DNA from: Candidatus Omnitrophota bacterium
Lineage (GTDB): Bacteria; Omnitrophota; Omnitrophia; Omnitrophales; Aquincolibacteriaceae
Length of the DNA: 64,000 nucleotides
NCBI GenBank assembly: GCA_030698625.1
Contig: JAUYMS010000003.1
Coordinates: forward strand, 83,471 to 147,470
Direction of reading: 5' to 3'
Each line of letters opens with the position of its first letter. Position 1 is the first letter of the stretch. The position numbers were made by a program, and so were the translations under genes. Below the pieces are notes generated by a model. That model was not told the origin of the DNA and made no database searches. It saw only the letters and a list, made by a program, of their open reading frames with translations. Positions 903 through 52,743 of this stretch are shown here, in pieces.

Positions 903-1022
903 TTGATGCGGAAAAAGAATTTCAAAAGGGGATTTTGCATCTGGCAAAAACTAACGGCCGCCTTTGTATCGGTCTGCATGATCCTCTTGAGTGTTGTCGA
1001 ATACGTGCCGGCCGCTTATGCC
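903..1022 (+). other. N-terminal Sec-type signal peptide or signal anchor of the giant protein
   Basis: MMRKKNFKRGFCIWQK (basic n-region), LTAAFVSVCMILLSVV (h-region), then PAAYA/ST (AxA-like site), covering aa 1-40. Confidence 0.6.
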
Positions 1023-4000: not shown

Positions 4001-7000
4001 TGTTCAGCTGCAGCGCGGATCAGCGCGCTCTCTTACGGCACAGCTAAAAAAGCACATGATAAATCTGGGGGATCTCTATCAACAGAACCGAGGCAACATC
4101 ATTTTCATGCCGCCCGCCGACTACTCACGGCCTTCAGCCCAAGACCCCGTGCACATGATTACGCAGATTGCGGTTGCCGCCATGCTGGCAAGCCGTGAGT
4201 CTTTTCCGGGTGCCGTTGTCACGGATCTGGGCGCCGGAGACGGGTTGCTTTCGCAGATTGCCCTGCGGTTGGGGGCCAAGCGGGTCGTCTTAGTCGACAG
4301 GAAGTACGGACAGCTGAGGAAGGCCGAAAAACTCCTTCGAGGCCAGGGCTATGACCAATTTGAATTACTCGAAGCCGATCTGACCGATACCCGCTTTATC
4401 AAACGCATCCTGGAAGAAAATCTCGACCGGGAATCTACGATTGCGCTCGTGAATATCGGACCGCATAAGCGCCTCTACGGCGACGCGAACCGGATCGTTA
4501 TGGAGCGAATCATGCGGTGGACCGGCTTGGGGTTGATTATCAATGCGGGATACTATGGCTCCGGGTGGATCTTCCCGGAAGCCCACGACGAGGAAATTAA
4601 GTATCTCGAAGAATTGCTTCCGCACCATGGCTTTGAAACGACGGTCTATGAAGACGGTATGGGTTGGCGCCGGGCCCTGACCGCGAAGCGCGGCGCGCAA
4701 CGCTCTGAGTTAAGAGCGGAAGAAGGCAAGGCTGAATTTATCGCGCGTATGGAACAGATCTTTGCCGGCGTGAAGCAGTCGGGAAAAAAGCTCGGCACGG
4801 AAGAGTTCGCAGAGCGCATGGGTTATCCGGGGCGCTGGGTCACGGCAAGAAATCGCGCCAAGCGTCTGGGTTATCCGCCCGCGACCTTGCAGCAATACGT
4901 TGAAACCGGGGCCGGAAAGGGCAGGGCCAGGGAAACCAAACAGGAATTCGCGGCGCGCCTGGAAAAGATTTTTGAATCCGTCAGGAAGTCGGAGAAAAGA
5001 GAAAAGATCTCGCGCAAGCTTTTCATGCGCTTAACGGGTTATACGAATAAGTGGGATGCCTTACTGCAGCGCGCGCGCAAGGCCGGCTACGCGTGGGAAG
5101 CCATCAGTCCCTATGTGGAGGCAGACGAGGCCCCGTCAAAGATTGAATTCTTGAAGCGGCTCCGGGCGATTGCCGACGCGGTGAAGCGCCATAAGAGACG
5201 CGACAAGATTTCGCGTGATTTCTTCATGCGCCTCATGGGCTATCCTGAAAATTGGACTGCGCTTATTCAGCGTGCACGCACAAGCGGCGTTACCCTGGCT
5301 GACATTAGTGAATTTGTTGAGAGTGCCGAAGAAACGGGGGTCGATGACAGAGGCCGCATACGCGAAGAGCAGCTTCGCGATGCCGTCACGACGGCCAAAG
5401 AAGAATTCGGTATAACGGGTCAAAGCATGCAAACCCTGAACCGCGCAAGGCGCGCCGAGTATCTGAACCGCGTTGCCGCACTTGTCGGTTACACGAACCG
5501 AAATAACTTCCTTCACCTTACCGAAAAAATGGGCGTGAATCTCGCGGCATTCGACATTCACCGCCTGGAGCGCCTCGTTCCGTATACGCTGACCGAAAGC
5601 CGCCAGTGGTTGATTGACAATCTGCCGAAGCCGGAGGATACGGAGGGCCGAAGGAAGTGGATCAGCACGATCATGCATCTTACCGGTATGGGGATGCTCG
5701 GCAGGACGGCCGCTTATACCTTGCTGCGCGCTGTAAGCTCGGGAGAATCCGGATTCAGTGAACTCGACAAGCCGGTGGCTGAAGAACTCGAACTGGATCT
5801 CTCGACCGTCTCCTCGTCGCTGCTTGGTAAAGAGCCCGTATCCATGGACCGTTCCCCGAATCTCCTAGACTTTTTTGTCACGGCGGCCAATCGCAAACTC
5901 GAGATCGAGCGGCTCAACCCATCGGCCCGCAGCCGTCAGATTACGATGACCCCGCTGCTCGATAATCATCTCTTTCCGTATCACTTGGAGCAGATGCTCA
6001 CAACACAAAGAACGAGCACAAGGGCAGGGGTGCTGGTCGAAGAAGTGATCGGGGAGTTGGGGAGTGAACTGAATGCGGAGGAGCGTACGTTGCTGCGGGC
6101 CGTTGTGCGGGCCCGTGCCGCGGGCACGCGCTTGCGTTATCAGACACATCGAACCGTTACCGCCGCCAATGAAATCTTGTTTGGGACCCGGGAGACTCTT
6201 GGGAGTACCGGCGTGTATCACAAAGTCAAAGCTGCCGTTGAGAACAGCGAAAAGCTCCGCGCAGCATTTGAGGCTTTGCGGGGTGATCTGGATCTTTCCA
6301 CGGACCGTTTTGACCGCGGCTTTTTCGAGTGGCTTCATACCGGGGGGTATCTCCATGACGCCGAGATTCATGGCATTACGCGGCTTATGGTTTACGACAT
6401 CGAAAACGTACCGTCGCCGCATCTCTTGCCGAAACTATCGCCTGAAAACAAACAAGCCTTTGCCGTCGCCTACTTTAGAAACCATCACTTTCAGCAGATT
6501 GCCGAGAATAGCGCCGCAGTCCTCGATGACCCGGGCCTTCCGGTGCATACGCTCTCAGCCGGGTCTCTGCGGGGATGGATTCAGGGGCGCCGGCCCCGAA
6601 AGATTGTGGGCGGCATTCGCAGGCTCGAAGCCGCTCTGAAACCGGGGAGTCCGGTTCAAGAGGTGCGTGAAAGTTCTACGGAACACGAACGTGAAACAGG
6701 ACAAATACTCGCGGGCGGGGGGCACAATAAGGATCTGTTGAGTTTTATTAACGGCCTGCATATGCGAAGGGCGAAGGTTGTCGCATTCTTTAATTTGGCG
6801 ACAAGGATTTCAGAGTCGGTAACGGGTCCGAAGGCCCTTGAGCTGAAGCATGCCTATCAAACTTTGCTTCTTGGGGTACTCAAGAACCCTGAATTGGAAG
6901 TCGACTCAACGCCTGTCCATCTCATGCTCATGAGCACGATTGTTAACCACCGTCACGACGAGGCGTTTTTAAGAAAATTCTTCGAGACCTTACTCGTGGC

Positions 7001-10000
7001 GGCCCATGGCATGAGCGCGCGAGTTTCGAACAGAGAAGCGGCGAACATGTTGGCCCGGACAATTCAGGGTTCGGCTGTCTATCTTGCGGCCGGCCCCAAG
7101 GGACCGATTACGCGCGAGGGTCTGGTTCACGCCTATCAGCGATCGGCGGCGGAGAAAAAACGTTACCTCAAAGTGCAGACGGTGCGGGACGACGCGGAAT
7201 TTCGTCTCATGGGCAGCTTGGCGGTCCCGGTTGGCTTGCGCCCCGATAATGTTTACTTCTCGAAGCTCTACAATGCGGTCATTGCAAAGGTCTATGCCCC
7301 GGTCCGCGTTATCTCTGACGAAGATGCCGCCGGTCACAAGGTCCGGAACAGATCACCCAAGACGTTGCGGCATGTCCGTGAAAGCCAAAAATTTGATCTC
7401 GCAAAAATTCGCAGTGAAGCCGACGAACACCGCCGGCGCCTGCGGCAGGCAGAGCGGCTCGCCTATGACTTTTGGGGCACCCAAGGCGAGCCGGGGTATT
7501 GGCCGGAAGAGAAGGTGAAGGGCTACATATGGACCCACTACCGAAGGTGGGTTCGCGAGGTCGTGTGGGAAAACGGACGCCGCGACATGGGCAGTCACGA
7601 CGGGGTCGATATGGAGGACCTCATGGATCTCGCGCGGGATTCAGTCGCCTATGTGGGTTACACCTACAATGCGCCGGAAGAATTCACGCTCAATCTCGAC
7701 GACCCGGGCTCCCCCGAGGAGCGTCACGCAATGATCACCGGAGTTGAAGCATTGGTGCAGGAAAAGGATGCGACCCTTAAGGAATTCGAACTCATGGTTA
7801 AGGACAAAGACAAAGATGCGACGGAGCTAAAAAGAGCGGGGTTCGGTTTGAAAAAGGCGGAGCGCGCAAAGGCTTATGTGGAATCAGTGCTGACGCTGCA
7901 TCGGCATTATCTGGAAGGGGATGCCGAAAAGGCAGCTAATGTGTATTTCGACCTCGCCGAGCAGCGTGAGACGATCGAGCGGAATATTATGCGAAGTCTG
8001 TTCACGAGTTATCTCAGGCCGAGTATTTTGCATTACAAGTCACGCCGGGCGGTCAAACAGGCGTTTTTTGAATTGAAGGCCATATCTCTGGATCAGCCGC
8101 TTCCCGACGGTGACGGTGAGCTTATGGACATCGCGATCCCCGTTTTGAGATCGCGGGATGAAGAGGCGGTTATCGTTGATGACCCGAGGCTTGCCTCCTT
8201 CCGCAGCATTGCCATTAAACAGCACTTTGCACAAGTGAGGACATCAGCCTTAAGTGATACGGATCGGGATCAATACATCATGCGGCTTTATTACGGACTC
8301 GAGCCGGCGTATGCGGGTGTTGACCTGACGCAGACAGACATCGCGACTATCGTCGCCTTTCATGGCGGGGCCCTCATTACCGATGAGCGAATCCGGCAGA
8401 TTATCGCCAGGCACGACAAGGATATTTTCCGGAGAGTGGTGCACCTGGCCCAGGCGGATAACCTGAAGTCCTGGGACACCTTTATGCTTCAACTCGGAGT
8501 TAAGGAGCCTGATGACGCTCCGCCGCCGGTTGTGATTCCGATCGAAGAGAACGAGTCTAAGATCTGGCTGGGCTCACACATTTGGATTGCCACATTGGGG
8601 GATCATGCGGGCAAATATCTCTCCTTCAAGATCATCGCCTATGACCGTTACAATCCGCGCTCCGCCGATGCAGGCTACAACAACGTCGAACTGCAAAAGA
8701 GAATCTACCCTTATATGCTCGAGATTGTCGTCAGGGATCCGACAAAGCCGGAAAAGGGCAATGAAAATCTGGTCGCCGTTTTTCACGTGCATGTGATTCA
8801 TCGGCCCACCGGATCCGTACAGCAACTACCCATCATCGCGGTTCGCGGAAAGCCGCATTACTTCCTACGCGTTGATAGCGGTGCGCATGACAGTACACTT
8901 GAGCCGGCGGCCGAGAAGGTCGACCGGGATCAGGGCGAGAGGCCGGAGCCTACGGAAGTTCCCGAAGAGCCCGTTCGGGAGGCCGCGATAGAAGAGCCTG
9001 TCGACCGCTTTAAAGATTGGCACGAGTCGGCGATCCCGCATTTGCAAAGACAGCTGAAGAGCGCGCAGGCGACGTCACTGGGGCACCCCGATTTTGAGGA
9101 ACTGGCACCGGTCGGGGAACACGGAAGAATCTGGGTAGCGTATCAGAAAGGGAACGTCGAACGTAAGGCCTTCTTCCATACCGGTATTGCAGGCGAAGGT
9201 CAGGCATGGGTGGGGCGGCGGTATGATCTGAGTAAGTCTCTTTATGTCTATCGAATCGTGCGCGTCAGCGACACCGGCGAGGCCGAATCCACTCGCTACT
9301 ACAGGCTGGATCTTGACGACCATGGCCAGCCCACCGCGATGGGCTTCCGTGAATTTAAGTACGACGGCAGTGTCTGGGAAAAAGTTTCCATTCCCGGCCC
9401 GTTTTGGCTGAAACAGCGGAGTGAATTGAGATCGGCGTCAAACACCGATGATTTTGATCCCCGATTGATCGATACCTACAGCCGCCTATTTGTCGAAGGC
9501 CTCCTCAATACAGTTGAGTCGGAGGGGTATCCGGAACCTTATCAGGGTGCGGTCAAGGAAGCTCGCTCCCGTCTTAATGCCGTCGATATGCCGAGCCTTG
9601 CGGATGTTCTTCAGCCGGTTGAAGCGGCATTGAAAATTCCGGTCACGCTCGACGGTTTAAGCGGTGCGGCAGACGAAACTAAGGTTTACGAACTAGCGAG
9701 ACTCCAATATAAAGTCCGCGCCCTAAACAAGTTTCGCGTACCTATTCGGGAATTTATCAAGAATCTAATGGAGCGGGCGGAATTTGCGGCAAGGATTCAA
9801 TCGTCGACCGAGGGCCCGGTCCGGATGGGACTCATTCATTTTGAAGAGGAAGGACACAAATCGGGTCAATACAGCAACGGATTGGCAGACATTGTGATTG
9901 ACTGGATGAGCACGTGGGACGCCTCGGTCAACGCGATTGTGTTCAGAAACATACGTTTCGATTACTTCTTCAACATCGTCGGGTTGGCAAACGCACTGCA

Positions 10001-13000
10001 ATCCAAGTTTTTCCCGGATGCCCCTGATCCCGACGCCTTAGTTGTTCTCTTGCGGGAATCCTTGAGAAATGCCGTTGTGTGGGGCAACAAGAGCCGGCCG
10101 GACAATTTAGCGGCAATACGCTGGCGGTTCGAGGGAGAAGAGCTTGTCATCGATGTCATTGACCGGAACCGGGAAGAGATTGATTTCACTAAAAAACCGG
10201 AACCCCCGCGGGGCGTCAAGCCGATCTACTATAGCCCGCGTACGGATCCTGCCTCGGGCGGGTATCCGGGGGACATCAAACCCTTTATCGATCCCGCTTT
10301 CCTGACGGGTGATCGCTACGATTTTCCGATTCTCGATAAATCCGGCCGGCGTCTAGGCCAGGTCCTGCACCTGCGTTACCCCTATCCTCAACGATCCGAG
10401 TTACGGGACGAAGACGATGAAGAAGTACTGGGTTATGTGGCCGATCATGCCGACTTCGATACGACGGGATTTATCACGAGCCGGTTTTCCGGAGGTTCTA
10501 ACGTCGTCGGTTTGGGGGATCTCCACACGAATCTGGCGGTCAAGGCGCAGACGATCGATCTGATACGGTCGGGGGAAATTACGCATCTGGTTATGGAGCT
10601 GAACGGTGAGGATCTGAACAAGGCGCTCAAGAATCGGGAATCATTGCGCGAAGCGATTCGGCGTCATTTTGAAATCCTTGTCATTAATGACGAAGACATC
10701 GAGAGTTTCGTCGACGTGATCCTTGCGGCCCAGACAGCCGGCGTTGAGTTGGTCTTCCCTGATCCTCGCAAGACGAGCCGGCCGGACGATCCGGGCCAGG
10801 AGACGGTCGACATGGAAGCGGCCCTGGCAATCGGGTCTATTGTCAGATCTGATCAGGATGCGAAAGTGCTGGTTCTATTCGGAGCCGAGCATACGCGCCG
10901 CGGTCTGCGCTGGCCGCGCAAGGAAGGCCGGAGCCGCCTTACCCTGGGAGAAAATCTCAAAACCGAAGAGGGTGTGCGCTACTATTCGGTCTATCTTGAA
11001 TCGCCGGACCGCAGGGATACCTCGGATTACACCCTGGTGAGAGGCGATAAATACCGCCAGCAGGGATTCGCCCTTACAAATATGGCGTCCTTCCCGCGGC
11101 AGATGCTGGACAGGGCAGCCGATACCGACTTCTTTCGACCTGAGGAAATCGATGCCTACGTTCAACTGCCTCTCCTTAGTTACGAAGACTACCGGACACT
11201 CGTCGCTGCGGGAGAGGATCTACCCAAATTTGTTTTGCCGGAGTTTACCGAAGACTTGGCGGTCAAAAGCAGTGTCGGCGAAAATGAACCGGAGCGCCGC
11301 CGTGCCATCCGTGAAAAAGCGGCTAGGCTGGTGGCCTTGTTGAGAACACAACCGGACGCCGATTGGCCGATCGAAGAAATGGTTGAGGAGTTTAACGGGT
11401 TCCGTCTTGATGTGAGCGAGTACGCGCCGGAGATCGGAGTCATTTATCTCTGGCTCAGCCCGACCGACTCGTTCACGATATCCGTCCCTACTTATTTCGC
11501 CGTCCCCTCACAAGGGATCGTCGTTCACGCCCCGGAATTCAGCGATGACCGCTATGAGGATGAAATCATTCAACTGCCCATCGAGATCGCGAAACTCCTG
11601 AACGGTAATGAGATTGAGAAAGACTCCAGCGGAATCTTTAGCCCGGCGGGGTCTGATATCTACTGGAAGGAATGGAGACAGCGGCATGCCTATCAATACT
11701 ACCGGACCCTCGTGGGCCCCATTGGGGCGGGTGCGGTGCAGGCGATTCTAGCGCGCGAGAGCGGCAGGAAGTGGAGAGTTGTCGACTTCTTCGCCGGAGA
11801 CGGGAGCTTCTTGCGGTATTTAAGTAAACACTTAGCAACGGTGCAGCCGGACACGGATGTTGATTACGCGATGGTGGAGAAGTTCAGCGAACTCATCGAT
11901 CAAGCGCCGCGTACTTTAGCAGGCACGGCGGTCGAAATTCATCAAGCGGATATTCGACACCTGCAGGACGTTAAAGCGATTATCGGTAAGAAGCCGGTCA
12001 TCGTGACAGCCTTCGGCGGGTTGAATTCCGGAGTCGTCAAGCAGGACGACGCCGAGGCCATTGCGAAAAGAATCTACGCAGCCTTGCCGGCCGGCAGTTA
12101 TCTCGTGCTCGGCGGCTACAGCGCGATGATGGTCAATGCGAAGGAGCTCGCTGCAATGGGCTTCGAGGTGCTCAATACGGGACTGCCGCATTACATGGTG
12201 ACCGAAGACAGAGAAGCTCCCAACCAACTTTATATCCTGCGCAAGCCCTATCCGTGGTATCGCGGCGGATTGTGGCGCTCGGAGTTAAGGAGCGCTTTTG
12301 ACTACGATGCCTACAGGAAGCGTCAAGAAGCCGGTCTTGAGGTAATCCTTGAAGAGATCGATGCCCTGCGCACCGACGGCCGCTGGGAAAAGATGCCGCT
12401 TAGTGCGCGGCTCCAACTGATCGGTGAGCGGGCCGACGTGGTTCCCCTCGACTGGGGCGCTTGGCTTGAGCTCCTCGAAAAAACCGGCATGTGGTTCGGG
12501 CCTGAGCGTGAAAAGATGGAGGACCCCACCGATCAGGTCGAGGCTACGATGACGGGTGACTACCAAATACTTCAGGCGCCCAGCATGCGCCAGCCGCAGC
12601 AAGGCGAAACCTACTCGCGCTATCTGACCTCCTATGGCGCTTGTGACTGTCTTGTGTTGACCCTTTATCATCCGGGTACCAAGGTCGGCATGATTGATCA
12701 TCTGTATCTGGAGCGAAAGAAGAATCCCGCCGAGCGCATCGCCGGTGCGCTAAAGACGATGCATGAGGAGTACGGCATCGATCCGCGCGAAGTCAGGGCC
12801 GAGATTTCCGGCGGTCAGATGGACCTATCGAACTTCAAGGCCATTCAGATTCTCGAAGCGCTCGAAACGCATGAAGTGCCGATCTACTTCTTCCAGGCCC
12901 TGGACTTCCCGCTCGTTATGCTGGACGGCTATTATCCGTATGCCGAGGGTGACGGCCATGTCGCCCTGGATTTAGAAACGGGCCGCCATTACCGGCTGCA

Positions 13001-16000
13001 CGATATTATCCCGCCCGCACAAAAACGACGGCATCGGTCTGAGCTCAGAAAGGGGAAGCCGATTGAGGATTATCTGAAGGAGCTCGAAAACGAGAAGGCC
13101 GTATTCGGACCGGACAACGCAGGGGAATTTTCAGAGAGCCACCGTTATGTGGACGGTATTCTTAAAAAACTGATCCTTACAGCGGGTTTTGATCCCGCAG
13201 AGTACTCTCTATACCTGGTCGATGACCCGGAACCCAAAGCCTGGATTCAGGGGCGCTATCCCGCCGTATTTATCTCGCTCGGCCTGCTGCGCTTTTTCGG
13301 GCGCCATCGGCTTTCACAAGACGCCCTGGCCCACCTCCTGGCGCATGAAGTGCTGCATCTCCGCCAGCATAAAGAGGACGAGCACTATAGCGGGCCGTCA
13401 AGCTGGTCTGAATACTACGCGGAGTACTATGCGAATGAGTACGACGCCGATGTCCGGGCACTCAGGCTTATGGCTGAGGCAGGATTTTCCATTCAGGACG
13501 CCGAATCGACTTTCGAAAAATTACGCGAGGGAATGGGCAAGAATGATTACTCGCCTCTCGGCTCCTACCCGCAGATGCGCACGCGCAGCGACCGCATCAA
13601 ACAGATCCGTGATTACGGGCGCTGGCCCGACAGCGCGCGCGCCGCGCCGCAGGCCATGCCTCAGGAGGTTCTTCGCGAGGCCATGCGTTTCTCGCTCAGG
13701 CGGCAGAAATGGCATCGCGCCAACCGCATTAATCAGGTGAAGGAGCTTTCCGAATTGATCGAGACGGCTGATGCGCTCAATGACCTTACGTTTATCCTAT
13801 GGTCGGGTCTCGGACGGCTCAAGAAGCGCCGGGTCCTGAAGTCGGCAAAGGTGCCGCATGCCGTCGAGTCCGCGCTCGTGACCCGGCTTGCTGCATTACC
13901 GATCTGGCCCGAATATCTCTCGGCCGACACGCGTGACCTCGCCGCGAAACTACTCGGTAAATTCCTGGCGGCGACTGTCTACGGAAAGTTTATGGAAAGA
14001 ACGGTGCTGATCGACCATGAATTGTTGAATGAAAAGGCATTGCTTGACGAGCTTTCGGAGATTTTTCACTCGGCAAAGAACGCGAAAGATGTGCTCGACC
14101 TGATCTCGGCGGCGATCTTTGTGACGATGCCGCAGCGCATCGCGCTCGGGCGTGAGACGGCCGGCGACGCTCAAAAATCCTATGCCGCATACCAAAACCG
14201 GTGGCATGCCGAACCGCGGCGGGGCGGTGACACGGTGGGATGGGTCTATACGTGGGAGCAGTTTCTGGGACGGGCGCTGCTCGAAGAAGTACCGTACGTG
14301 CCGATAGCCGGCCGGCAGGTCCGGTGGGGCCCTTTTATCCGCGTCGTCGGCTGGATTCAAGGGGCCGTCCGGTTCGTTCTCGGCCGGTTCGTAAGTATCG
14401 ATTGGATTCAGGTGCGTGACCCGCTTGCCGGGTGGACGGCGGCAGACCTCGGGCGCGTGTACGAAGCGGGCGCGGGGCGTACCTGGGGCGGGTATCATAT
14501 CGGTCCGATGCGTCATTCCAATGTGGTCGGCATCGACCACTGGTTGTTTCAGGCGGCGATCAATCATCCCGAACTCGTAAAGGCCATGGACACCGATACC
14601 TTCCGCCGTTTTGTCAAAGACGCCACGAAAATCGCGGTGGCCAAGGGGCCCGGCCACAGTGATGATCCCGAGACACAGGAAGCCAAGATGCGCAACATGA
14701 TTTATGAAGCGGCGTCTTTGGATGCCGCCAAGCGTGAGGTGATCCAAAATCTTCTGGGTAATGATTATGATGTCTTCGGCTTCTTCAGAACGGGGATCGA
14801 ATCGTTTCCCGATACCTGGATCTTCGGTGAAAACGCACCGGGTACCGGATATGCATACGCAGAAAAGAGAATGGATGATCTCATCCGGCAGCTGCACGCG
14901 CGGCGCGGGTCGATCAGCGGTATGGTGCTCCACCACTCGGAAGTGCTTCATGCAAGCGATCGTCTTGCGGAGAGCGCGAAACTGACGCAGACCGAACACC
15001 TGCGCCTCATGGCCCACCTTGCGAAGACCGAATGGTATTCGGCTGACATGATGTGGCACAGCCTGCTCGGCTGGGAATCGGGTCGCGTTCAGTGGATACC
15101 CTCTTTTCTCGGACAGGCCGACGACGAGCTGAACGCCTTCATCGACCTCGATTTGAGGGCGCGGCTCGGTGACGGCGTCTGGGAAAGCCTGCCGGTGACG
15201 GGACGGTTCATTTTTTATGCTTACCTGAACGATATCTACCAGTTGCCCGCCGACTGGGAAGCTTGGGACCGGGAAGTACAGTCGTGGAGCACGGAACAGA
15301 TCCGGTTGCTGCACAGGGTGGTTGCACAGAGTACGAACCGGCCCGTCTTCGACACGGATGCGAGGCTTGACCGCGAGGCGATCGACCGCCGGCCGCCGCT
15401 TCCTTACCGCCGTTCGCGCGAAGAGCTCTTGTTGCGCTTGAGTGTGCTGGGCCTTTTGAAGGAACAGGGCGTTTCTCTAAAGAAGTATTTGCCGCCGGTG
15501 GAACTCGGAAGGTCGGCGCCGAGCGGGGCCTTTGGTTTTGCGGATCAGCTGGCTGATTTGCCGCGCGGAAGGAAGGAGGACAATCCGCGCGTCAGGCGGG
15601 CGATGGATCACCTCTTTCACATGTTCCGGCTTGAAAAGGGCCGCTCGCCGTGGATTAACCGAACCGATATCGAAAAGAACGGTGAGCAGGGGATGACCGC
15701 CATCCTGGGTTATGTGTTCGCGGAAACCGGCGAGACTCCCGCAGACATGGCCGATCGTATCGCCCACTGGCTGCCGGCCACGGCTTATCGTAACTGGGTG
15801 CTCTATCTGATTTTCATGCACCACTACCTTGGCCGAACACTCGGCGTTAAGATAGACCGGAAACGGCTGGGGGATACGAGCTATATGGCGGAGGTGTGGG
15901 CAAGCGTGAGTGATAACCAGCGTGAATCCGCACGTCATTTTATTCGGGAAAAGATCGCACCACTCATGGTGCAGGATGCGCGATTGGAAGGCTTGAATCT

Positions 16001-28000: not shown

Positions 28001-31000
28001 TTCGGAATTCGACCTCACGCACGACGACGTTGCTTCGGTTACGCACAGCATCTATGACCGCACGAGCGGTATTATCGGCATACGGGCGGCCGTCGAGGAC
28101 AAAGCGGGAACGGTCCGCTATATCCGGTTTTCGGGCGCAGGCACGAACGAAATGGAGAAATTGAAAACTCTCATGCCACCCATTTCTGAGATGACCGCAG
28201 AGGGGACGGTCCTGCGCGTTTCGGCCGGTAATCAGGGTGACCTGGCCGGGAATTTTACCGTGCACTCACGCAAAGAACGGGGCTGGGAGTTTTTCGGGGC
28301 CAATGACGAGCCTTGGCGGGGAGCGAGATATAAGGCTTTTGTCCAATTGGAAAATGGGAAAAGGATGTTGGGCGAGGTCGAGCTTGTCGGCGAAGCTAAG
28401 GACAACCGCATTAAACAGGTCTTTATCACGCCTGTCGGCGGACGTGAACGAGTCGAGCTCGATGCGATGCAAACGCGGTCGGTCATTGTTGCCTATACGC
28501 TGGGTTGGGGCGAAACGCCGGCGGACGAGTTACTGAGGAAAAATTACGCCATGAGTTCCGATATCCGGCACCTGCTGGCCTTTCCCTTCTTCCGAGGCGG
28601 TCCGCAATTTTACAATCAGACGGTTTTGACCCGCGAGCGCTATAAAGCCGCGATGAACTTCCGGCCGTTGGATTTTGATATTGTCGACATGACCGGTAAC
28701 GCCATTCCCGTCGCAGAGCTTCTCGGCCAACTTGATAAATACGGTTATGTTGCTAAGGATACCGCTGACGAAGTCGTGAAACCGGGCGATTATTTTATTG
28801 CGGACGAAAACAACATTCGTCTTATTTTTCATCCTGCGGTTTATCCCGTCAACATTCTTGTGACGAGTCAGGACGGCGAAAAGGCGGCTTTCGTCAGCAT
28901 CCAGGGTGTTTCCGGAAATCTTGGCGCGAACTATTGGAATGTCTTTGAGTGGATTCAGGAACAGCTGCCCTGGGCCTTTGCCGCCTTTGCCCTCGACAAC
29001 GGCAAGGACCCGTCATGGCAAAGCTACAATGAGGACGGAACCGAAGCGGAGCTGCTTGTTACAGGCCGCGACCTCGTCAATGCGACCGTGCTTGTCACAA
29101 AACGTGACGGTTTTCAACGGTCAGAGTTAAGGCTCCCGGCACGGACCGCTGAGGAAATGATGACGCGCCGGGAATTTATCCCGCGGGCGGCGTTGGCGGT
29201 TGCTGCCGGTCTCGTTGTTCTTTATGAATCGCCCAATATTGTTCTTGCCGCCGACGAAGAGAAGGGAGAAGTGACACTCTTTCTCCTGAGTCACGGCACG
29301 GTTGAGGACTTCGAGACAGTAAAACCGCATGTGGAAGCGGTCATCAAGCGGCTGCTCGATGCGGGTAAGACCGTGCATTATTTTGTTGAAGCCGCCGATC
29401 TCGAAGCGGAATTATCACTGACATCCCTCATTTACGCGGCGCTTGCGCCCGATCAGTCCGCCGACTTGCGCGAGGTCTTTGGCAACCTCTATACGGAGCC
29501 GCTCCCCGAGGCCTTTCTCGAAACCTCTTTTGAGCAAGATCAGCTATTTGTGCCGCTCCTTCAGGGGGTCGAGCGAGGACTTCAATATATGAAGGATCAC
29601 AACGAGATTCCTGCCGACCGTATTGCCGATTACGAGCTGGTCCTCAAGCTTCTGCCTGTCTTGCGGAAGATCAAGGAGAAGTTCCGGGGAATCGTGCGCG
29701 GCACGGCATCGCCGGACTCCGACGACGTCACTCGCGAAGTCGCGATCGAGAGGCTTACGAAACTGTTTGATGAATTTTATGATGCGACCGACCATTCTTA
29801 TGAGCCGGATGGGTTAGCGAAGGCTCCGTTCGCGCATCGATTGCACTATGCCCTTAACCGGGATAAAGACGGAAAGCCCTGGGGATTCTGGGGCGCGCAG
29901 GAGATGTACCTTAGAGAAGGCACGTTTGCCCCGGAACTGGGAACACGACTGCTTGTTCACAGGGAACGCCTGCTTACGCCCGGCCAGCTTGATGCGTATA
30001 CGACAGCGTCGGTGCAATACTCGAAACTATTTGAAGCGCTCGGATTTCCGGGAAATCCCAAATCAGTTATCGAGATCGAAGGAAAATTTCCGGAAGCGGT
30101 TTTCTATGCGACGCAGGGTACCGCGGAGGAGAGATTGGCCCTCGTGCGCAAAGCCTACTACGAGGCCGGCGCCCGATTTGAGAGTGCCGTCATGGGTGGC
30201 CGCGACAGAGCGCTATCGCAAGAGGCGGTCCGTTTAACACCGGAGGACAAAGACGCATCGGTGATTACCCGCGGTTTGGCTCACGTGGCGGCGGGAAGGC
30301 TTCTGGCGGATAATGCCGCGACGGATGTCAGGGACATGAAGCAGATTCAGGGAAGGGCGCAGCCGGCAGTTGACGCGCCCAATACCGAAGCGGAGCTCAG
30401 AGAAATGCGCGGCGGCAATCCGGGCGACGCCATAAAATTAAAGGTTGGGCAGCATATGGTGGTCGGTTTGATCTCCGATCTCGTTCGCGAAGTCCACAAG
30501 GATCATTTGAAGGCGTATCGAGAGCGCTACGAGAACCTCGCGGCCGGAATCCCCGATACCCTTCAAGGTGAGGACCGGGAAAAGGAAATTGAAAAACAGA
30601 TGAATCAGGCCCCTTACTTCCGCGCCATGGATCCTGCACCGCTTCCGAAACGGCTTGAGAGGTTTTTTGTCGAAGACAGACGCAGTATCTGGAACGCAAT
30701 GGCGGACCACCCGGAACAAGTTGAGGAATTCCTGCTTCAGGCCTTTAGGATTCATGCGGCATACCAGCGGGTCGTTGCTGCAACGCTCCGGAAGAAAAAA
30801 GAGACGGAGCCGGAGGAGGATCCTGTGGAAATGGCGGGGAGAATCTATGCGACTTATCTGGCGATGCTGAAGCTGCGGTCTGCCTCGATCCCCACGCCGC
30901 TTGAAGCCGAAGAGCTGCCGTTCAAGTTGATCACAAAGGCCGTTGCCGACGGAGTGTATGAAGGGGATGTGAAGACTTTCCTCGATACCTTCGAAGCAGA

Positions 31001-34000
31001 AGCCGAAAAAGTCATGGATTTCAAACCTTCGCTCCTGCGCCGCGAACGCTATCGCTCCGAGCTGCGGGATGATGAGCCTGTAAAGGAGATTCCTCTTTAT
31101 ATGGCTTATGCGCGGCATTTAAACGCGGCGGACACCTTTGATTTCGCAAAGCCGTTTTTTGATGAGGCAATTCAGAAAACATCTCGCAAAGACGGCCGCC
31201 CGAACGGCATTATGATTATCGAGCATGTGGATTCCAATCTTGCTGCTATGTTCATGAACGCGATGCACCGAGTCGTTGATCCGGTGCAGTTTCCGGACTC
31301 GGTCGTGGGCGCTTGGTTCAGACAACAACTTACTATTCCCAAACAATGGACACCTTATGAAAAGATGGAATCGTTTCTCGTGCAGTACCGGCAAGATCAG
31401 CCGTTCAGGACTGAAGTGGACAACCAGTATCAGGCCTTTCTCAAACATATTGGCGTCGAGAGAATCTATGGCATCTATGACCTAAAGCAAAGGATCGGGC
31501 CGGCCTCTGTTTTACAGCATGCGGAGCTCGACTATTTTATCGAAAAGGGGATAGGTCAGGCCGCGTTGGAGCCCGCCCGCTTTGAAACGGCCGCGACGGC
31601 GTATCTTTTCGGGGAATTGGATAAGGAGATAAGGCAAGCGCTTACGCAAAGGAGATATGACGATGCGGCCAACTTGCATTTAAAGTCGATTGATTTGCTT
31701 GAGGACTCGGGCAAAGTCCGCGACAGGATAATGAATCAATTCGTAGGTGAGCTCATCCGGGAAGATCCTGAGCGTGCCATCTATCACTTTCGCGGTTTTA
31801 ATCATGAGAGAAATCACGATCTCCTTACGGGTGACGGGCAAAAGGCCGCAGGTGTCTTGGTCGGCAGCAGGCTGGGCCAGAGGCCTGTCTTTTCGACAAC
31901 CACCTTTCAAGCCATGGACGGCGCAGAAAAAAACCTTCTCCTCATACATTTTATGAATGAGGTCCTGGATCATTTACTTCATGAAGAGAAACTCAGCTCG
32001 CATCGCAGCATCCAGGAATTCCTGGCTTTTCACCTGAGTCTGACACAGGGGCTTGAGCGGGAATTTAAAAGCCTGGAACAACCTGAAGACTACGATGCTT
32101 GGTTTAGGGAAATCTTTGATGCCGCAAACGAAACAGTACAAAGGAAGAGCCTGTCCCTGGGTCTCGCGCTGCTTGAAGTTTTGGAAGAAAGAAATATCCT
32201 GTCTCGTTCCGAGCTCAGGACCGAAGGCGGCGATAAAGAAAAGCCTCGCGGGCAAATTACGCGAAGGACGTTTTTGGATTGGATGGTGAAAGCCGCCAAT
32301 GCGGCCGCGGCGGCATCGGGGGTTTCGCCCGGGGCATTGCTCGAGGCCGCCGTCTCCATCCCCGCCGAGAAACCAGACTTGTCGCTGGCGGCGTTGGCCC
32401 GGCGATTTGCCCATAATCCCGATTCCCTGAAGGAACTCGAACAGGGTGTTGCTTGGCTTCAGGCATTCACTATCCTATACGGAACTGACAAGAAAGAGGA
32501 AGACTATGAGCTGGGCTTGATAAACCTGAAGCTCGCCGTACTGGACGGCGTGCGCACACGCAAAGAAAGTGAAGGCGTGACCGCGCTTTCCGAAGAGGAA
32601 GCCGCTTCACGGCTTGAGACGGCCCTGAATTCGCTGGAATCCATTGCCCAGTCCGAGGGCCTGAAAAAGGCCCCGCATCTCTTGGAGCGTCTGCGGAGCC
32701 TGATGGCCGAACCGTTCAGCTTCAAAGCTGCGCTGTCTGCACGAACGGCTCTGATACGGCACGCCTGGGGCACCGTACTTGGACCCCGCAGCGAGCTGTC
32801 GAGGGTCGCCAAAGACGTTGCCGAATGGTATGGCCGCGATCTCCGGGCCGCGCAAGCCGTAATGGCGGAGATCGCCGAACAGCTCACGCCGGAAGGATTC
32901 CGAAAAATACGGCAGCGGGAATTGATCTTCGAAAGGAATATGGACAACTACTTTGATCGTTCACTCCTCCCTGAGATTGCGCGCGGCGAGGCCGAGATCG
33001 ATTGGAGCAACCTTTTGGAAGACGACTACCGCGCTCGCATGTCGCGGTTTAAGGATCTGGCCGGTCAGTTGCCGGCAGCGGTGCGCAAGCAGGTGTTTGC
33101 CAATCCTAAAGTGCGGGAGGCTGAACGCAGTTACCGGCAATGGCAGCGCGAAAGCTGGAAACGAAAGGAGGAGCGGGAAACCTCCGCCGATCCCGAATCG
33201 CTCAAGATGATCATCGTCGGCGGCAGGTTCGACGACGAAGGCGGCAGGCCGTCATCATTAGTCAATCAGATTCATGCCGCACTGCCCGCGGGCACGAAGC
33301 GCGTCAACGGCGGCCGCTTTGACGCAATTCCGGGCCTCGCAAAGACCCTCGCCGATTATGACGTGATCATCTGGTTTCCCGATATTCCCAATGACAAGGC
33401 GAAATACCGGAATCTGAAAGCGCGGTATCCCGACAAATTGCTGGTGACCTCGAAGCGCAACCACGAAGGCAGTTATAGCGACCTCGAAGTCGTCGATCAC
33501 GCGCTCAAACTCAAAAGCAATCTCGTCATCGAATTTTCGGATACGATTCCGTTTAATATGAGGCTGCTGGATCCCTTGGGAAATGTCTACGAAGATACTC
33601 AGGACGCGTCATCGCTCGCCAAGTCGATGACAAGGCGCCTCAAGGTGATCGCGAAGGTGCGTCGGCAGGGGACAAAACGCGTCGCGGTCGCCTCACCGGT
33701 CAAGGTACCGGATGAGCCCGAGTTTTTCGATATTATCCGCGATCAAGCCGCGCGATTTCACGAGATCATGAGTGAACGTCGGCCGGAGACGGAAGAAAAC
33801 GAGGAGTTTTGCTTCCGTTGCGAAAGGGGATTCCCGAGTATGCGCGAGGGCGATTTCGCGTTCGTCTCGAAGCGGGGTGCCGCAAACACGGAGCGGCATT
33901 TTACGCGCAAAGATATGGTTCCCGTGGATTTGGCGAGTTTCCGCGAGACGGGCGAAATTAATTTCTACGGCCCCAACAAACCGGCGGTGGATACGCCGGT

Positions 34001-37000
34001 CCAGGTAAGACTCTATAATCAATATCCGGAAGTAAAATATATCATGCATTCGCATGAGTACGTGGAAGGCGCGCCGTTTACCGATGAAGTGTATGCCAGT
34101 GAGGCGCTTCAGGAATTTGACGAGATCGTGAAGGTGGTCGGAAAGGAGCCGGGCGTTAAGAATGTTGCCGTCAATCTGAAAGGGCATGGCAGTGTCGTGC
34201 TTGCCGCCGATCCGGAATATTTGCGCAATACCAAATATGTCTCCCGGACTTTTATCAGCGAGAGGACGGAAATGAACGCTATCCTCGTAGGCGGCCGATT
34301 TGACGGCGAGGGCGGGACGCCGTCGGCACTCATCCAAGAACTTCACGGGGCGTTCCCGCCGGGCGTGACGCTGCACAATGGCGGATCTATCGAAGAGTTG
34401 ACTGCGCTATTCAGCGGGTTGAGCGAGTATGAGGTCATTATGTGGTTCCCCGAGATTCCGCGGGGAGAAGATACCCTTACGTCGAAGATTAAGCTGGTCT
34501 ATCCCTTCAAGAAGCTCATCACGGCGGCCCACAACCGAAGCGGCGACCGCCCGTTCCAGGTGATAATGGACAAGGCGCTCGGCGTGCGGAGCAATTTGGT
34601 TGTCGAATTTTACGACGGCGAGAAGCCGGGCATGCGGCTCTTGGACCCATTATCCAACCAATACGGTGATACTACAGACCCGGCGCTATTTGCCGCTGCC
34701 ATCAGGGAGCGGCTTGAGATCATGAGGAAGTTTACGCGCCAAAGAACGGTTTTGGCGGGTGAAGCCAAAGTGCCGCCGAGGAATGCAGAATTTGAAGAAT
34801 ACCTCGGAATCATCCAGGCGTACGGCGAGAAAGTGCATGAGTTGATTCATCCGGCCGAAGGTGTCAAACGGTTCCTCGGCAATACCTCATTCCGCGCTTC
34901 CTATATGTATCCCGACGCTGGCTACGACGACCTGGTCTACATCTCAAGACGGAACGTCGATAAGCGCAATCTCGATGAAACCGGCTTTATCGCAATCGAG
35001 AAAGACTCGTTTAAAAATAGGCAGATCGGCTACTATGCGGACCGGGATCCCATCACGGGCGAAGAGCAGAAACCGAGCGTAGATACCCCGACCCAGGTGC
35101 GGTTCTTTTCGAAACTGCCGAACGTGAATTTTATCCTGCATTCCCATGTGTATATCGACGGCGCACCGTTTACTGAAGCCCTGTGCCCGTGCGGTTCGCT
35201 CGAAGAAGTCGAAGATGTTCTAAAACTCATCGGTCATGACTACAGCAGGACGAATTTCGCGATCAACCTGCGCGGGCACGGCAGCCTTCTCTTCGCACAA
35301 AGTCTTGATTATCTAAAGGAAGATCACCCGTACACGGCCCGCCCGCTTCCCGAGCTTCTCAATACCGACGGATCCAAGGCGAGAGCCGCTGACTACTTGA
35401 AGAGCCCGTATATTCGCGAAGCCCGTATCGTCGGTGACGGAGAAACCGTTACGGCCGAAATCTTGCCGAACTTCGAAACCCTCGAAGCCTTTGCCCGGGA
35501 GGAAGGGCTCTACACACTGCGTGAAGTCGATCTTCGGAACGATCCCGCAGTTTATCAACTCTTTATGGATATCGCCGGCGGTGTCAACCGGCTGCTCGAT
35601 GAGTCCGAGCATATCCGTAACATTGTCCTTTTAAGTTCTCCGCCGGGCGCGGACAGGCAGCAAATGATCGATACCGCGATAGCCGAAACCGCTCTGGAGG
35701 AGACAACGTCGGCGTACTTCGAGAGCGAAGAATTCGCCCGGGAGATTCTCGCCGTGCCGGGCCGCGAATTGCCGGAAGCCTATGTCAACGTACTGCGCCG
35801 CGATTTTCGTGCCGGCCGGTCGGGGCATTATAAGCGGCTTTTAGGTTTTACGGGTTCCGGCGAAGCCATGTTCGAAAGCATGGAAGAGTATTTCAATAGT
35901 GATGCGGCGGTTAAGATCTATAAAGTTCTGTTTAAAGGGCGCGTGGCGGGCAGAATTGTCGTCAACGAGAGGACTAAGACACTCATTGATGCGATCGTTC
36001 TCGAGCCCTACCGCGGAAACTATCTCGGCGATGCCGTGATCGGGCTGCTCGATCAAAAATACGGCGAATACTCGATCGTGATCCCGACCGGTGTTCCTAT
36101 CTATAATTTTCTCATCAAGCGGGGCTTCAAGGTCCTGCACTCGGAGTCGTTCGGCGCCATTGACCTCGATATCATCAGCCGTACTTCGCATAGCGAAGAG
36201 GATTTGGCGCCGGTAAAGGATGTACACCGTACGATATTCGCGCTTTATGCAAATGCCAAGATGGCTGATTTATCGGCTGCGGCGAAAGACCCGAAAGAGA
36301 GCGGCCTTTACAGGAATTTTCCCGAAGTCTACGATCTGCTCTATCAAAGGTTTTCCAGGCGTTTAGGGGATTACCTGGGCCTTGTTAAGGAGAATACTCC
36401 GGATGGCGGTGCCATCATGGACGCCGCTGCGGGAACGGGCGAGGTATCGGTGCCGCTGCTTCAGGCCGGCTACCGGGTCCTTTCAGCAGACCTTAATGCC
36501 GGAATGCTCGAACAGTTGCAGAAAAAGGCAGGCGAGGGCAGCGTTACGGCAAATACGGCCGTCGCAAGCTTCCATGAATTAGGCGATAGGGAGGACCAAT
36601 TTGATACGGTCAGTGTAAGGCAGGCAATCAATTATCTGGTTGGTGAAAAAGAATTGGTCAGCGGCTTAAAGGCGTTACGCAAGCGGATAAGAAACGGCGG
36701 TAAATTCGTGTTCAACGCGCCGAATTACAATCCCGCGACTTTTACGCCGCCCGAGAGAGGGCCGGATCATATCAAACTGGGAACGATGAATGCGATTGTG
36801 TGGGAGAGCAATGCCATCGATGAAAACGGCATACTAACGCACCATCAGCGCGCTCTCGTGTGGGACGACAACGGCCGTGACGATGTCCGTTACTATCATG
36901 ATAAGAATACGTTTCAGATGTATACGAAGGACGAACTCGACTCCGCTTTGAAAGACGCGGGTTTCTCCGAGATCTCGTATTACTCCGAGCACGGCAAGGC

Positions 37001-51882: not shown

Positions 51883-52701
51883 ATGAAGTCCCTCCTCCGC
51901 ATCTCCCTGATTTTTGTTCTGGGCGTCGTTATTCTTCTTGGGGGTCTGTATTACTGGCGCAACCAGCTGATCGAAAAGCTGTTCGTAAAATTTGTTGCCG
52001 GCAAGCTTCAATGCGAAGTGACGCTAACCGAAGCGCAACTCGACCTCTTCGCGGCCAAGGCCACTTTTAAGAACATTAAAATTTCCAACCCCGAAATCTT
52101 CAGCCGCGGCACACTGACTGCCATTCGTGAGCTTTACCTGGATTGGGATTTTCCGGCCTTGTTGGAAGGAAGACTGCATTTCTTCGCGGTAAAACTGGAA
52201 GTCGGGACCCTGCGCATTTTGCGCAACAAGCAGGCGCTGATTAATATATTGGAACTGAACGTTTTTAAGGAAGCGGACGGGGCAGAAGGCGAAGAAGCGC
52301 AGCCGAAACGCGATATCAACCTGCAGGTGGACGAGTTTATCCTTATTCTAAATCACGCGACTTATACCGATTTGTCGGGCATCGTACCGCTGCAGAGAAG
52401 CTTCAATTTACACATGAAGGAAATCGCATTTAGTAACCTGACAGACCTCAAGATTCTTGTGAAGATTGTCGGTTGGGAGACGCTCAAGGCAATGGGTATT
52501 GAGGACATGACCAACCTCAACCCCAACCTCCGGGCGCAGCTTGAAAAGATTCGTCCAAGCGCGTCGGAAGGCTTCGTGACTAAGTTTGTGGAGAAGGTGA
52601 AACAGATTGGTGAACCGGGAGCCGTTATCACTGACGAAGCGACTGCTGTTCAAGAGGTGTTGGAGAAGAGTAAGCGGGCAGAGGGAATCGAACCCTCATA
52701 A
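51883..52701 (+). CDS. Hypothetical membrane-anchored protein
   Basis: 272-aa ORF with an N-terminal anchor (LLRISLIFVLGVVILLGGLYYW). No family recognised with confidence. The last 29 nt overlap tRNA-Gly on the opposite strand. Confidence 0.55.
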   Translation: MKSLLRISLIFVLGVVILLGGLYYWRNQLIEKLFVKFVAGKLQCEVTLTEAQLDLFAAKATFKNIKISNPEIFSRGTLTAIRELYLDWDFPALLEGRLHFFAVKLEVGTLRILRNKQALINILELNVFKEADGAEGEEAQPKRDINLQVDEFILILNHATYTDLSGIVPLQRSFNLHMKEIAFSNLTDLKILVKIVGWETLKAMGIEDMTNLNPNLRAQLEKIRPSASEGFVTKFVEKVKQIGEPGAVITDEATAVQEVLEKSKRAEGIEPS

Positions 52702-52743
52702 CGAGCTTGGAAGGCTCGGACTTTACCATTAAGCTATGCCCGC
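52673..52743 (-). tRNA. tRNA-Gly (anticodon UCC)
   Basis: Folded by hand from the minus strand: GCGGGCA-TA-GCTT-AATGGTA-AAGT-C-CGAGC-CTTCCAA-GCTCG-TTAT-GAGGG-TTCGATT-CCCTC-TGCCCGC-T. It has a 7-bp acceptor stem and a TTCGATT T-loop. CCA is not encoded. Confidence 0.9.

Follow-up and report, generated by a model that had tools for sequence, protein, structure and literature searches.

Methyltransferase and acetyltransferase domains as cassettes of a giant Omnitrophota protein divided by a recurrent pentapeptide

We describe a giant gene in a 64,000-nucleotide stretch of the genome of a Candidatus Omnitrophota bacterium (NCBI GenBank assembly GCA_030698625.1, contig JAUYMS010000003.1, positions 83,471 to 147,470 of the forward strand; the window, hereafter). 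Its single open reading frame (ORF) encodes five divergent transferase domains, three of them like Rossmann-type S-adenosylmethionine (SAM)-dependent methyltransferases (MTases) and two like GNAT acetyltransferases, which are cargo in four of about sixteen cassettes. The chain that carries these cassettes is a membrane-anchored Omnitrophota giant multi-enzyme protein, and a conserved pentapeptide, R-[S/A]-E-x-R, delimits them. From the sequence patterns set out below, we consider it evenly balanced whether this chain is a polyprotein whose cleavage at the motif would yield enzymes working as separate proteins. A sequence-only reading of the window had picked out the interval 4100-37030 as a payload of group-transfer enzymes resembling multi-effector toxins more than any metabolic pathway; a single frame holds that whole interval.

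906..37655, + strand: giant ORF, 12,249 amino acids (aa) from the ATG at 906; the ORF lister starts it at the TTG at 903, giving 12,250 codons

A conserved pentapeptide divides the chain

The pentapeptide RSELR occurs 16 times in the giant protein, in this frame only and with no degenerate variants, where we estimate from composition that about 0.03 occurrences would be expected; there is none in the other 7,792 aa encoded by the window. The 16 sites split the chain into 17 pieces.

2343..2357, + strand: RSELR at aa 481, within the N-terminal module; homology runs across it, and it may not be a true junction
2505..2519, + strand: RSELR junction at aa 535
3750..3764, + strand: RSELR junction at aa 950, before the MTase1 module; module 3 is bounded in the same way in its P0003 homologue
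4701..4715, + strand: RSELR junction at aa 1267, closing the MTase1 module
9417..9431, + strand: RSELR junction at aa 2839
10392..10406, + strand: RSELR junction at aa 3164, start of module 7
12276..12290, + strand: RSELR junction at aa 3792, closing the MTase2 module
13035..13049, + strand: RSELR junction at aa 4045
18795..18809, + strand: RSELR junction at aa 5965, opening the GNAT1 module
21273..21287, + strand: RSELR junction at aa 6791, closing the GNAT1 module
23463..23477, + strand: RSELR junction at aa 7521
27786..27800, + strand: RSELR junction at aa 8962
29118..29132, + strand: RSELR junction at aa 9406, with a Tat-like signal after it
31053..31067, + strand: RSELR junction at aa 10051
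32205..32219, + strand: RSELR junction at aa 10435, start of module 16
37050..37064, + strand: RSELR junction at aa 12050, end of the GNAT2 and MTase3 module, where the stand-alone homologue P0001 stops

All five RSELR positions are encoded by freely varying codons, so that selection acts on the peptide; a motif at the level of DNA or RNA, considered as an alternative, is ruled out by this variation over the 16 sites. Across 152 family proteins (424 thousand aa; kaa), the generalized pattern R[SA]ExR is found 851 times against 28 expected, while permuted control patterns occur 6-39 times. The family logo reads R, then S (0.82) or A (0.18), E, one of L/V/M/A/I, and R, with a fourth residue that is typical of the lineage, giving the forms RSELR, RAEVR, RSEVR, RSEMR, and RSEAR. 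The flanks of the motif are unconserved except for small residues at -1 and S/T/A at +1.

The motif also marks where homology begins and ends. Among internal homology blocks, 33% end no more than 10 aa before a motif, as compared to 4% of random positions, and 23% start no more than 10 aa after one (random positions, 5%). In P0005, which has a homologue of module 4, and in P0003, which has a homologue of module 3, RSELR bounds the homologous module at aligned positions. Recurrent conserved inter-domain sites are therefore found at the boundaries of independently evolving units, which is what a polyprotein would present. The RSELR at aa 481 could be the first cut site or a pseudo-substrate. At its aligned site, relatives are often motif-like (HSELR, RAELR, RSEIR).

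Signals resembling those for twin-arginine translocation (Tat) lie directly behind two of the junctions.

29157..29255, + strand: Tat-like signal MMTRREFIPRAALAVAAGLVV...VLA↓AD, aa 9419-9451, beginning 8 aa past an RSELR junction
32256..32318, + strand: twin-arginine-like segment ITRRTFLDWMVKAANAAAAAS, aa 10452-10472, 12 aa past a junction; it failed a stricter Tat filter

Family-wide, Tat-like signals stand right after 8 of 739 junctions and after 7 of 8,580 random positions, an enrichment of about 13-fold, and hydrophobic segments follow 5.5% of junctions as compared to 1.7% of random positions. Tat signals act at a free N-terminus; it can thus be argued, from their position directly after junctions, that junctions become N-termini.

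Transferase domains

The sequence-only reading had rested on MTase motif I strings at 4215-4244, 11778-11804, and 36414-36443, and these are borne out, all in the frame of the one ORF (VVTDLGAGDG at aa 1105, VVDFFAGDG at aa 3626, and IMDAAAGTGE at aa 11838). A strict motif I pattern matches the giant protein at exactly these three sites, with 0.00 matches expected (300 shuffles), and a looser pattern likewise yields 3 against 0.13 expected. The three matches are thus far beyond chance and informative by themselves. The in-frame GNAT motif A strings, RGKGIA at aa 6370 and RGNYLG at aa 11704, also stand where the sequence-only reading had placed them (20010-20027 and about 36012-36029) but belong to patterns that are not enriched (13 observed against 15.2 expected for one pattern, 7 against 10.8 for another). 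Since such strings are no commoner than chance, GNAT calls need support at the level of the domain. MTase1 takes up module 4, MTase2 stands at the end of module 7, GNAT1 is part of module 10, and GNAT2 and MTase3 together form the end of module 16.

3765..4715, + strand: module 4, aa 955-1271, holding MTase1, with RSELR at aa 950 and 1267; the homologous module of P0005 also ends in RSELR
4206..4427, + strand: MTase1 region, aa 1102-1175, with motif I VVTDLGAGDG, post-I VVLVD, and downstream NIGP; sub-threshold Pfam matches
10407..12290, + strand: module 7, aa 3169-3796, an orphan module with RSELR boundaries and MTase2 at its C-terminal end
11760..12197, + strand: MTase2 (probable), aa 3620-3765, with motif I VVDFFAGDG, three marginal Pfam matches, and Protein Data Bank (PDB) entry 3giw at E 0.12
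18810..21287, + strand: module 10, aa 5970-6795, an orphan module with RSELR boundaries, holding GNAT1
19857..20123, + strand: GNAT1, aa 6319-6407, with motif A RGKGIA; PF00583 above its gathering score
32220..37064, + strand: module 16, aa 10440-12054, with Tat-like twin-arginine segment, duplicated units resembling class II aldolases (Aldolase_II matches), GNAT2, and MTase3
35745..36140, + strand: GNAT2 (probable), about aa 11615-11746, a divergent GNAT-like fold with RGNYLG between predicted strand beta4 and helix alpha3
36309..36968, + strand: MTase3, aa 11803-12022, a complete class I SAM-dependent MTase with motif I IMDAAAGTGE

MTase3 is, by sequence comparison, a complete class I methyltransferase. 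It matches Pfam Methyltransf_25 at 6.6e-12 and 46.4 bits (gathering score 27) over model positions 1-97 of 97, and further Pfam models above their gathering scores, namely Methyltransf_11 (4e-10, 40.6 bits; gathering score 21.2), Methyltransf_12 (8e-9, 36.6 bits; gathering score 30), and UbiE. PDB entry 3d2l aligns over its full length (4-216 of 243, E 2.6e-8), and there are also matches to the amine or peptide-N-terminus N-methyltransferases CypM, TylM1/DesVI, and glycine-sarcosine MTases. The top NCBIfam model, for the MTase of daptides (ribosomally synthesized and post-translationally modified peptides), scores 42 bits (7e-11) as compared to a cutoff of 175. The GxGxG motif I and the acidic residue that ends strand beta2 (IMDAAAGTGE ... 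YRVLSADLN) are both present, and both are kept in P0001.

MTase1 is probably a class I Rossmann methyltransferase, a call made on sub-threshold matches. Six or seven MTase models match at E 2e-5 to 7e-3, over the N-terminal half of the fold only; they include Methyltransf_25 (1.8e-5), Methyltransf_31 (3.7e-5), FtsJ, Methyltransf_11, PrmA, and MTS, and none reaches its gathering score, the top score being 25.8 bits for Methyltransf_25 as compared to 27. In the PDB a PRMT matches at E 0.011, while in NCBIfam matches to PrmA and to SDR Rossmann proteins are mixed. The motifs stand in the expected order (VVTDLGAGDG, VVLVD, LLEADL, ALVNIGP), and the P0005 homologue retains GAGNG and ANIGP.

MTase2 likewise is probably a class I methyltransferase, judged from matches below threshold. 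Its sole Pfam matches, Methyltransf_19 (0.0094, 15.9 bits), Methyltransf_23 (0.029, 14.5 bits), and Methyltransf_25 (0.065, 14.4 bits), fall below gathering scores of 26-27, and its best PDB match is the DUF574/Methyltransf_19 protein noted above, 3giw, whose group is the closest one known. By inspection, motifs I to IV follow in the right order (VVDFFAGDG, DYAMVE, IHQADI, VIVTAFGGL, LPAGSYLVLGG). Alignment of MTase2 with MTase3 by hhalign was uninformative, and an iterative hidden Markov model (HMM) seeded on MTase3 recruited neither MTase1 nor MTase2.

GNAT1 is a GNAT domain that passes a curated threshold (Pfam PF00583, 24.7 bits; gathering score 20.7). Its RGKGIA fits the consensus Q/R-x-x-G-x-G/A, and its match in the PDB is the phosphinothricin acetyltransferase-like 1vhs (E 2.9e-4). 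GNAT2 is probably a divergent GNAT fold, going by a structure model of low confidence, and its binding of acyl-CoA is uncertain. It has no Pfam, NCBIfam, or PDB sequence match even at E 5-10, nor did a profile search of the PDB give a relevant match. Its pyrophosphate-binding loop, R-G-N-Y-L-G, differs from that of canonical GNATs, with Tyr where Gly is required. An AlphaFold2 (AF2) model from two sequences, of low confidence (predicted local distance difference test score 52), has the order beta1-alpha1-alpha2-beta2-4-alpha3-beta5-alpha4, as in GNATs; in a Foldseek search of the PDB with this low-confidence model, the top 50 matches were all GNATs (E 4.7e-4 to 4e-3, TM-scores 0.35-0.47). P0001 keeps the R-G-N-x-L-G-D of GNAT2.

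These results partly confirm the sequence-only reading: two domains are solid, two probable, and one is called on a low-confidence fold model. Of the three class I MTases that it read from clear motif I sequences, MTase3 is upheld by profile HMM, whereas MTase1 and MTase2 stay below gathering scores. Both GNAT motif A strings are present, the first within a domain that passes PF00583 and the second degenerate and without profile match. The last GNAT and MTase do share one module, as proposed, and P0001 contains both; that module extends over 32220-37064, however, and not over 35915-37030. Nor are the modules close paralogues of housekeeping enzymes, the finding that would have spoken for a mere gene-fusion artefact. 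Among 5.8 billion proteins, neither module 7 nor module 10 has a detectable homologue at E<=1e-3.

All three MTase-like domains share motif I GxGxG and the acidic end of strand beta2 with known class I SAM-dependent MTases, and MTase3 shares the full domain of about 220 aa. Scores against NCBIfam subfamilies are all far under the curated cutoffs, so no specific subfamily or substrate can be assigned. The nearest relatives serve as leads rather than assignments: amine or peptide-N-terminus N-methyltransferases for MTase3, PrmA and PRMT for MTase1, and RimI-, AAC-, and phosphinothricin-type GNATs for the acetyltransferases (the closest known GNATs being RimI, AAC, SpeG, and phosphinothricin acetyltransferase). 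Three of the five domains are, as regards annotation, less firm than their motif strings suggest, and no substrate or toxin role can be assigned.

The GNAT2 and MTase3 region has one sole homologue among the 5.8 billion proteins, P0001. This is a stand-alone protein of 990 aa, 53-54% identical, that spans the aldolase-II-like units, GNAT2, and MTase3, and its stop codon falls 4-5 residues before the position of the RSELR at aa 12050. A scan of GTDB representative genomes with the GNAT2 and MTase3 alignment retrieved generic methyltransferases only (22-52% identity over the core), with no relative of the whole unit.

Terminal modules, topology, and the family

The variable cassettes lie between two conserved terminal modules, and hydrophobic segments are found near the N-terminus.

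933..1016, + strand: N-terminal hydrophobic segment, aa 11-38, by hydropathy either an anchor or a signal peptide, with possible cleavage at AYA↓ST
1017..2357, + strand: conserved N-terminal module, aa 39-485, a putative hydrolase of Tiki/TraB/EreA/ChaN-like fold
2544..2666, + strand: membrane anchor by hydropathy, a hydrophobic stretch at aa 548-588 at the start of module 3; P0003 has an equivalent single transmembrane helix
37065..37652, + strand: conserved C-terminal module, aa 12055-12250, ending ...VSIAA; 15 relatives align

A confident AF2 model gives the N-terminal module the fold of Tiki, TraB, ChaN, and erythromycin esterase, with invariant D-x-H, EE, E..H..R, and GGFH; this is also the fold of RRSP, a MARTX effector, and of HopBA1, a type III effector. 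A helical insertion, about 200 aa in length, sets the module apart from the Tiki/TraB/PrgY/ChaN/erythromycin-esterase superfamily. No Pfam or NCBIfam model matches the module, and a profile search of PDB sequences gave nothing relevant. Internal copies of the fold, suspected at the starts of modules 7 and 14, were sought by HMM in the window and the family and rejected. Of 151 family members, 117 have -AA or -SA as the last two residues of the C-terminal module (about 190 aa), the final Ala being invariant. Such an end resembles an ssrA-like or tail-specific-protease recognition end.

An HMMER scan with aa 1-1200 retrieved 6,051 representatives at E<=1e-3. The alignments of the best 150 of these 6,051 (E<=6e-92) all fall at aa 10-540, with lengths of 2-6.7 kaa for most of the proteins; two relatives have the label Candidatus Omnitrophota. 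The relatives share a plan of N-terminal signal or anchor, N-terminal module, variable and mostly lineage-unique cassettes separated by R-[S/A]-E-x-R, and C-terminal module of about 190 aa. At cassette positions they carry ordinary metabolic enzymes (3-dehydroquinate-synthase-like, ROK, and NAD-epimerase domains). P0096 has a second long ORF (>2,636 aa, no Pfam match) directly upstream on the same strand (L018:1-5727), and giant genes may occur in tandem.

The hydropathy scan of the giant protein finds one anchor, then about 11,600 aa without strong hydrophobic segments, a pattern from which nearly all modules are predicted to lie on the cytoplasmic side of a single membrane anchor. Cysteine is scarce, with 10 in 12,250 aa (0.082%) as compared to 1.09% in the other 22 ORFs of the window, a depletion of about 13-fold. 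All ten are paired (aa 12/25, 3914/3916, 5854/5855, 10970/10973, and 11428/11430). The depletion, about ten-fold, is family-wide, with a median of 0.10% among 90 relatives. Low cysteine is a trait seen in exported proteins.

Other cargo, locus, and flanking genes

Most of the giant chain has no Pfam match, and module 12 has weak P-loop matches only. Two further segments, both in module 9, match Pfam.

13140..13367, + strand: Peptidase_M48-like segment, aa 4080-4155 (PF01435, 3.3e-5, 24.2 bits; gathering score 20.3)
17172..17891, + strand: ABC1/UbiB-type atypical kinase, aa 5424-5663 (PF03109, 1.7e-25; PDB 5yjz, 6e-11)

The ABC1 kinase is the strongest Pfam match of the giant protein and shares the 1,920 aa of module 9 with the segment resembling an M48 zinc peptidase. 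In module 16, a unit of about 360 aa, with an N-terminal alpha/beta part and a class II aldolase-like part, is doubled (aa 10762-11482; about 33186-35700); the two copies are 33% identical, and P0001 has fewer copies. Internal repeats across the giant protein were also sought, and self-BLAST finds none even at E 10; its modules are thus not paralogous copies of one another.

Translation probably starts at the ATG at 906, which an AGGA precedes by about 10 nt. A search of both ends of the ORF gave neither a sigma-70-like promoter nor an intrinsic terminator, and none of the longest antisense ORFs within the gene matches Pfam credibly. Housekeeping genes lie on both sides. Upstream, where about 900 bp are visible, there is an SseB-like gene; downstream, on the opposite strand, lie nuoI/N/M/L/J and atpD/G/A/H/B, and beyond these an M28 peptidase gene, a tRNA gene, a desaturase gene, nusA-infB, ribF, and pnp. 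The tRNA gene, at 52673-52743 on the - strand between a DUF748-like ORF and the fatty-acid desaturase gene, is the sole one, and an Rfam scan of the window returned this tRNA and nothing else. AtpD, NusA, IF-2, RibF, and PNPase of the window are identical to proteins MDP3919288-MDP3919306 of an NCBI metagenome-assembled genome (MAG; Candidatus Omnitrophota bacterium), encoded on a contig of 151.5 kb, and the AtpD recurs in an independent Logan assembly. Given these matches, the locus is a real chromosomal gene of an Omnitrophota bacterium.

Is the chain cut at the motif?

As a polyprotein, the chain would be handled as follows. A site-specific protease would cut at the motif in the producer cell, probably after the second Arg; the released methyltransferases and acetyltransferases would act as separate SAM- and acyl-CoA-dependent enzymes; and the envelope would be the destination of cassettes that start with a Tat-like or hydrophobic segment. 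The N-terminal Tiki-like module, on the strength of its modelled fold, is the obvious candidate for the protease.

Several points weigh against a polyprotein. A protease was not identified in this sequence analysis. Hydropathy places the N-terminal candidate protease across the membrane from most junctions, a doubtful topology for such a role. A conserved neighbouring gene, e.g. for a dedicated protease, is not apparent in two relatives, the upstream genes of which are unrelated. Some homology blocks, 34 of 298, run across a motif. The roughly ten-fold depletion of cysteine would fit an exported protein better than cytoplasmic enzymes. The transferase calls are themselves uneven, with MTase1 and MTase2 under curated thresholds and GNAT2 carrying a degenerate motif A in a low-confidence model. 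Lastly, the boundary statistics would be accounted for just as well by an uncleaved fusion whose linker is conserved.

Such a fusion, a membrane-anchored mega-enzyme or scaffold in which R[SA]ExR serves as a conserved linker or as the place where a common partner docks, is the strongest alternative, and we think it unlikely to an appreciable but not a decisive degree. The single anchor followed by its long hydrophilic chain suits it well, as do the lack of an identified protease and the homology blocks that span motifs, and a 2026 preprint favours a transmembrane-anchored cytoplasmic reading (bioRxiv 10.64898/2026.06.07.730766). A passive linker, however, needs no five near-invariant residues over hundreds of junctions amid unconserved flanks; Tat-like signals right after the motif cannot function within an uncleaved chain; and the stand-alone homologue P0001 ends at the motif.

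The toxin interpretation of the sequence-only reading is, in our analysis, partly supported. In its full form it would have cassettes exported to prey or host and released there as in MARTX toxins, where they would covalently modify molecules of the prey with its SAM, acetyl-CoA, and ATP, and this we consider distinctly unlikely. The transferases do look like cargo of a modular giant rather than steps of a pathway, and the plan of conserved ends, shuffled variable cassettes, and a short processing-like motif is MARTX-like. The scarcity of cysteine (0.08% here and a median of 0.10% in the 90 relatives, as compared to 1.09% in neighbouring genes) points the same way, as do the fold that the N-terminal module has in common with RRSP and HopBA1, the predator among the Omnitrophota, and the role in predation proposed for their giant proteins. 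Against the toxin reading, Pfam search of the whole ORF finds no RTX or glycine-rich repeats, cysteine protease domain (Peptidase_C80), Rhs/YD, CdiA, or other toxin or secretion domains, and the visible flanks (SseB-like, nuo, atp, nusA-infB-pnp) hold no type I or type II secretion system (T1SS, T2SS) genes. Metabolic enzymes of ordinary kinds are found among the cassettes of relatives, the Tat-like signals point to the envelope of the producer itself, and the hydrophobicity pattern places nearly all modules on the cytoplasmic side of the anchor. Moreover, methyltransferase and GNAT are already among the commonest Pfam families in Omnitrophota proteins of at least 10 kaa.

An artefact, be it an assembly or frameshift fusion of separate genes or a set of chance motif matches, is scarcely credible: GNAT strings are no commoner than chance and two of the three MTase calls are sub-threshold, but a stop-free frame of 36.7 kb cannot arise by chance, the flanking genes are exactly reproduced in the NCBI MAG and the independent Logan assembly, thousands of proteins, many of several kaa, have the same plan, the three strict motif I matches stand against an expectation of 0.00, and the junctions are in-frame pentapeptides with varied codons rather than stop/start scars.

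A broader form of the polyprotein reading holds that Omnitrophota giants are true polyproteins, that R-[S/A]-E-x-R is a phylum-wide cleavage code, and that Tat signals exposed by cleavage route some of the products; we put this forward tentatively, with prospects that fall just short of even. If true, it would amount to a virus-like strategy of gene expression in a cellular organism, with dozens of enzymes made from one translation product, and would fill in the cleavage points that are missing for the phylum's giant proteins, which reach 147 kaa. The motif provides concrete candidate cut sites and allows giants to be split computationally into units fit for structure prediction.

Comparison with known systems

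The giant protein and the MARTX toxins (Vibrio RtxA family) have in common conserved terminal regions, variable shuffled cassettes, and short inter-cassette sites, which in MARTX serve processing. The MARTX processing site is Leu-X, unlike the R[SA]ExR found here, and the topology predicted here is cytoplasmic. The MARTX hallmarks of RTX repeats, Peptidase_C80, and an adjacent T1SS were not found in the giant protein and its visible flanks, which places it outside that family. With the polyproteins of picorna-, poty-, and flaviviruses it shares one long ORF, many unrelated enzymes, and short near-invariant sites followed by a small residue. Unlike these, it is the product of a cellular chromosomal gene amid nuo, atp, and nusA, is known here from its sequence, and has no recognized chymotrypsin- or papain-like protease.

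Giant ORFs are a known trait of the Omnitrophota, a phylum that includes a predator. The Archaeovorins among them contain methyltransferases and GNATs, and their cleavage has been suspected, at points that were unknown (West-Roberts et al. 2023, bioRxiv 10.1101/2023.11.21.568195). Archaeovorins have at least 30 kaa and many transmembrane helices, as compared to 12.2 kaa and one or two hydrophobic anchors here, and have a T2SS-like locus upstream and pilZ downstream, neither of which is in the visible flanks of our gene (about 900 bp upstream; nuo and atp downstream). Their glycosyl hydrolase or transferase, NUDIX, C39, S8, and SecA-like domains were not found in the giant protein by Pfam, and it falls outside the strict description of Archaeovorins (West-Roberts 2023). 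In our search of the literature, we found no description of an RSELR/RSEMR/RAEVR-type motif or of a polyprotein in Omnitrophota, and no mention of the R[SA]ExR motif, the Tiki-like N-terminal module, or the -AA C-terminal module in West-Roberts 2023 or the 2026 preprint.

The closest likeness is to the giant multi-enzyme proteins of the Omnitrophota ('class 1 multi-enzyme'), with which our protein shares the phylum, a length above 10 kaa, a signal or transmembrane anchor, and a sparse, diverse Pfam content in a chain that is mostly unique in sequence. It comes from an Omnitrophota genome, has at least 10 kaa, and joins many unrelated enzyme domains in one chain, as members of that class do. 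Among Omnitrophota proteins of at least 10 kaa, for which the multi-enzyme class was defined, PF08241 is found in 137 of 916 and PF00583 in 93 of 916, HATPase-like domains too rank with the commonest families, and methyltransferase, HATPase, GNAT, and HAD have been grouped as a signal-transduction or regulatory module (bioRxiv 10.64898/2026.06.07.730766). The payload of methyltransferases and acetyltransferases is thus what is expected of an Omnitrophota giant; the newly described part is the cassette frame and its junction motif.

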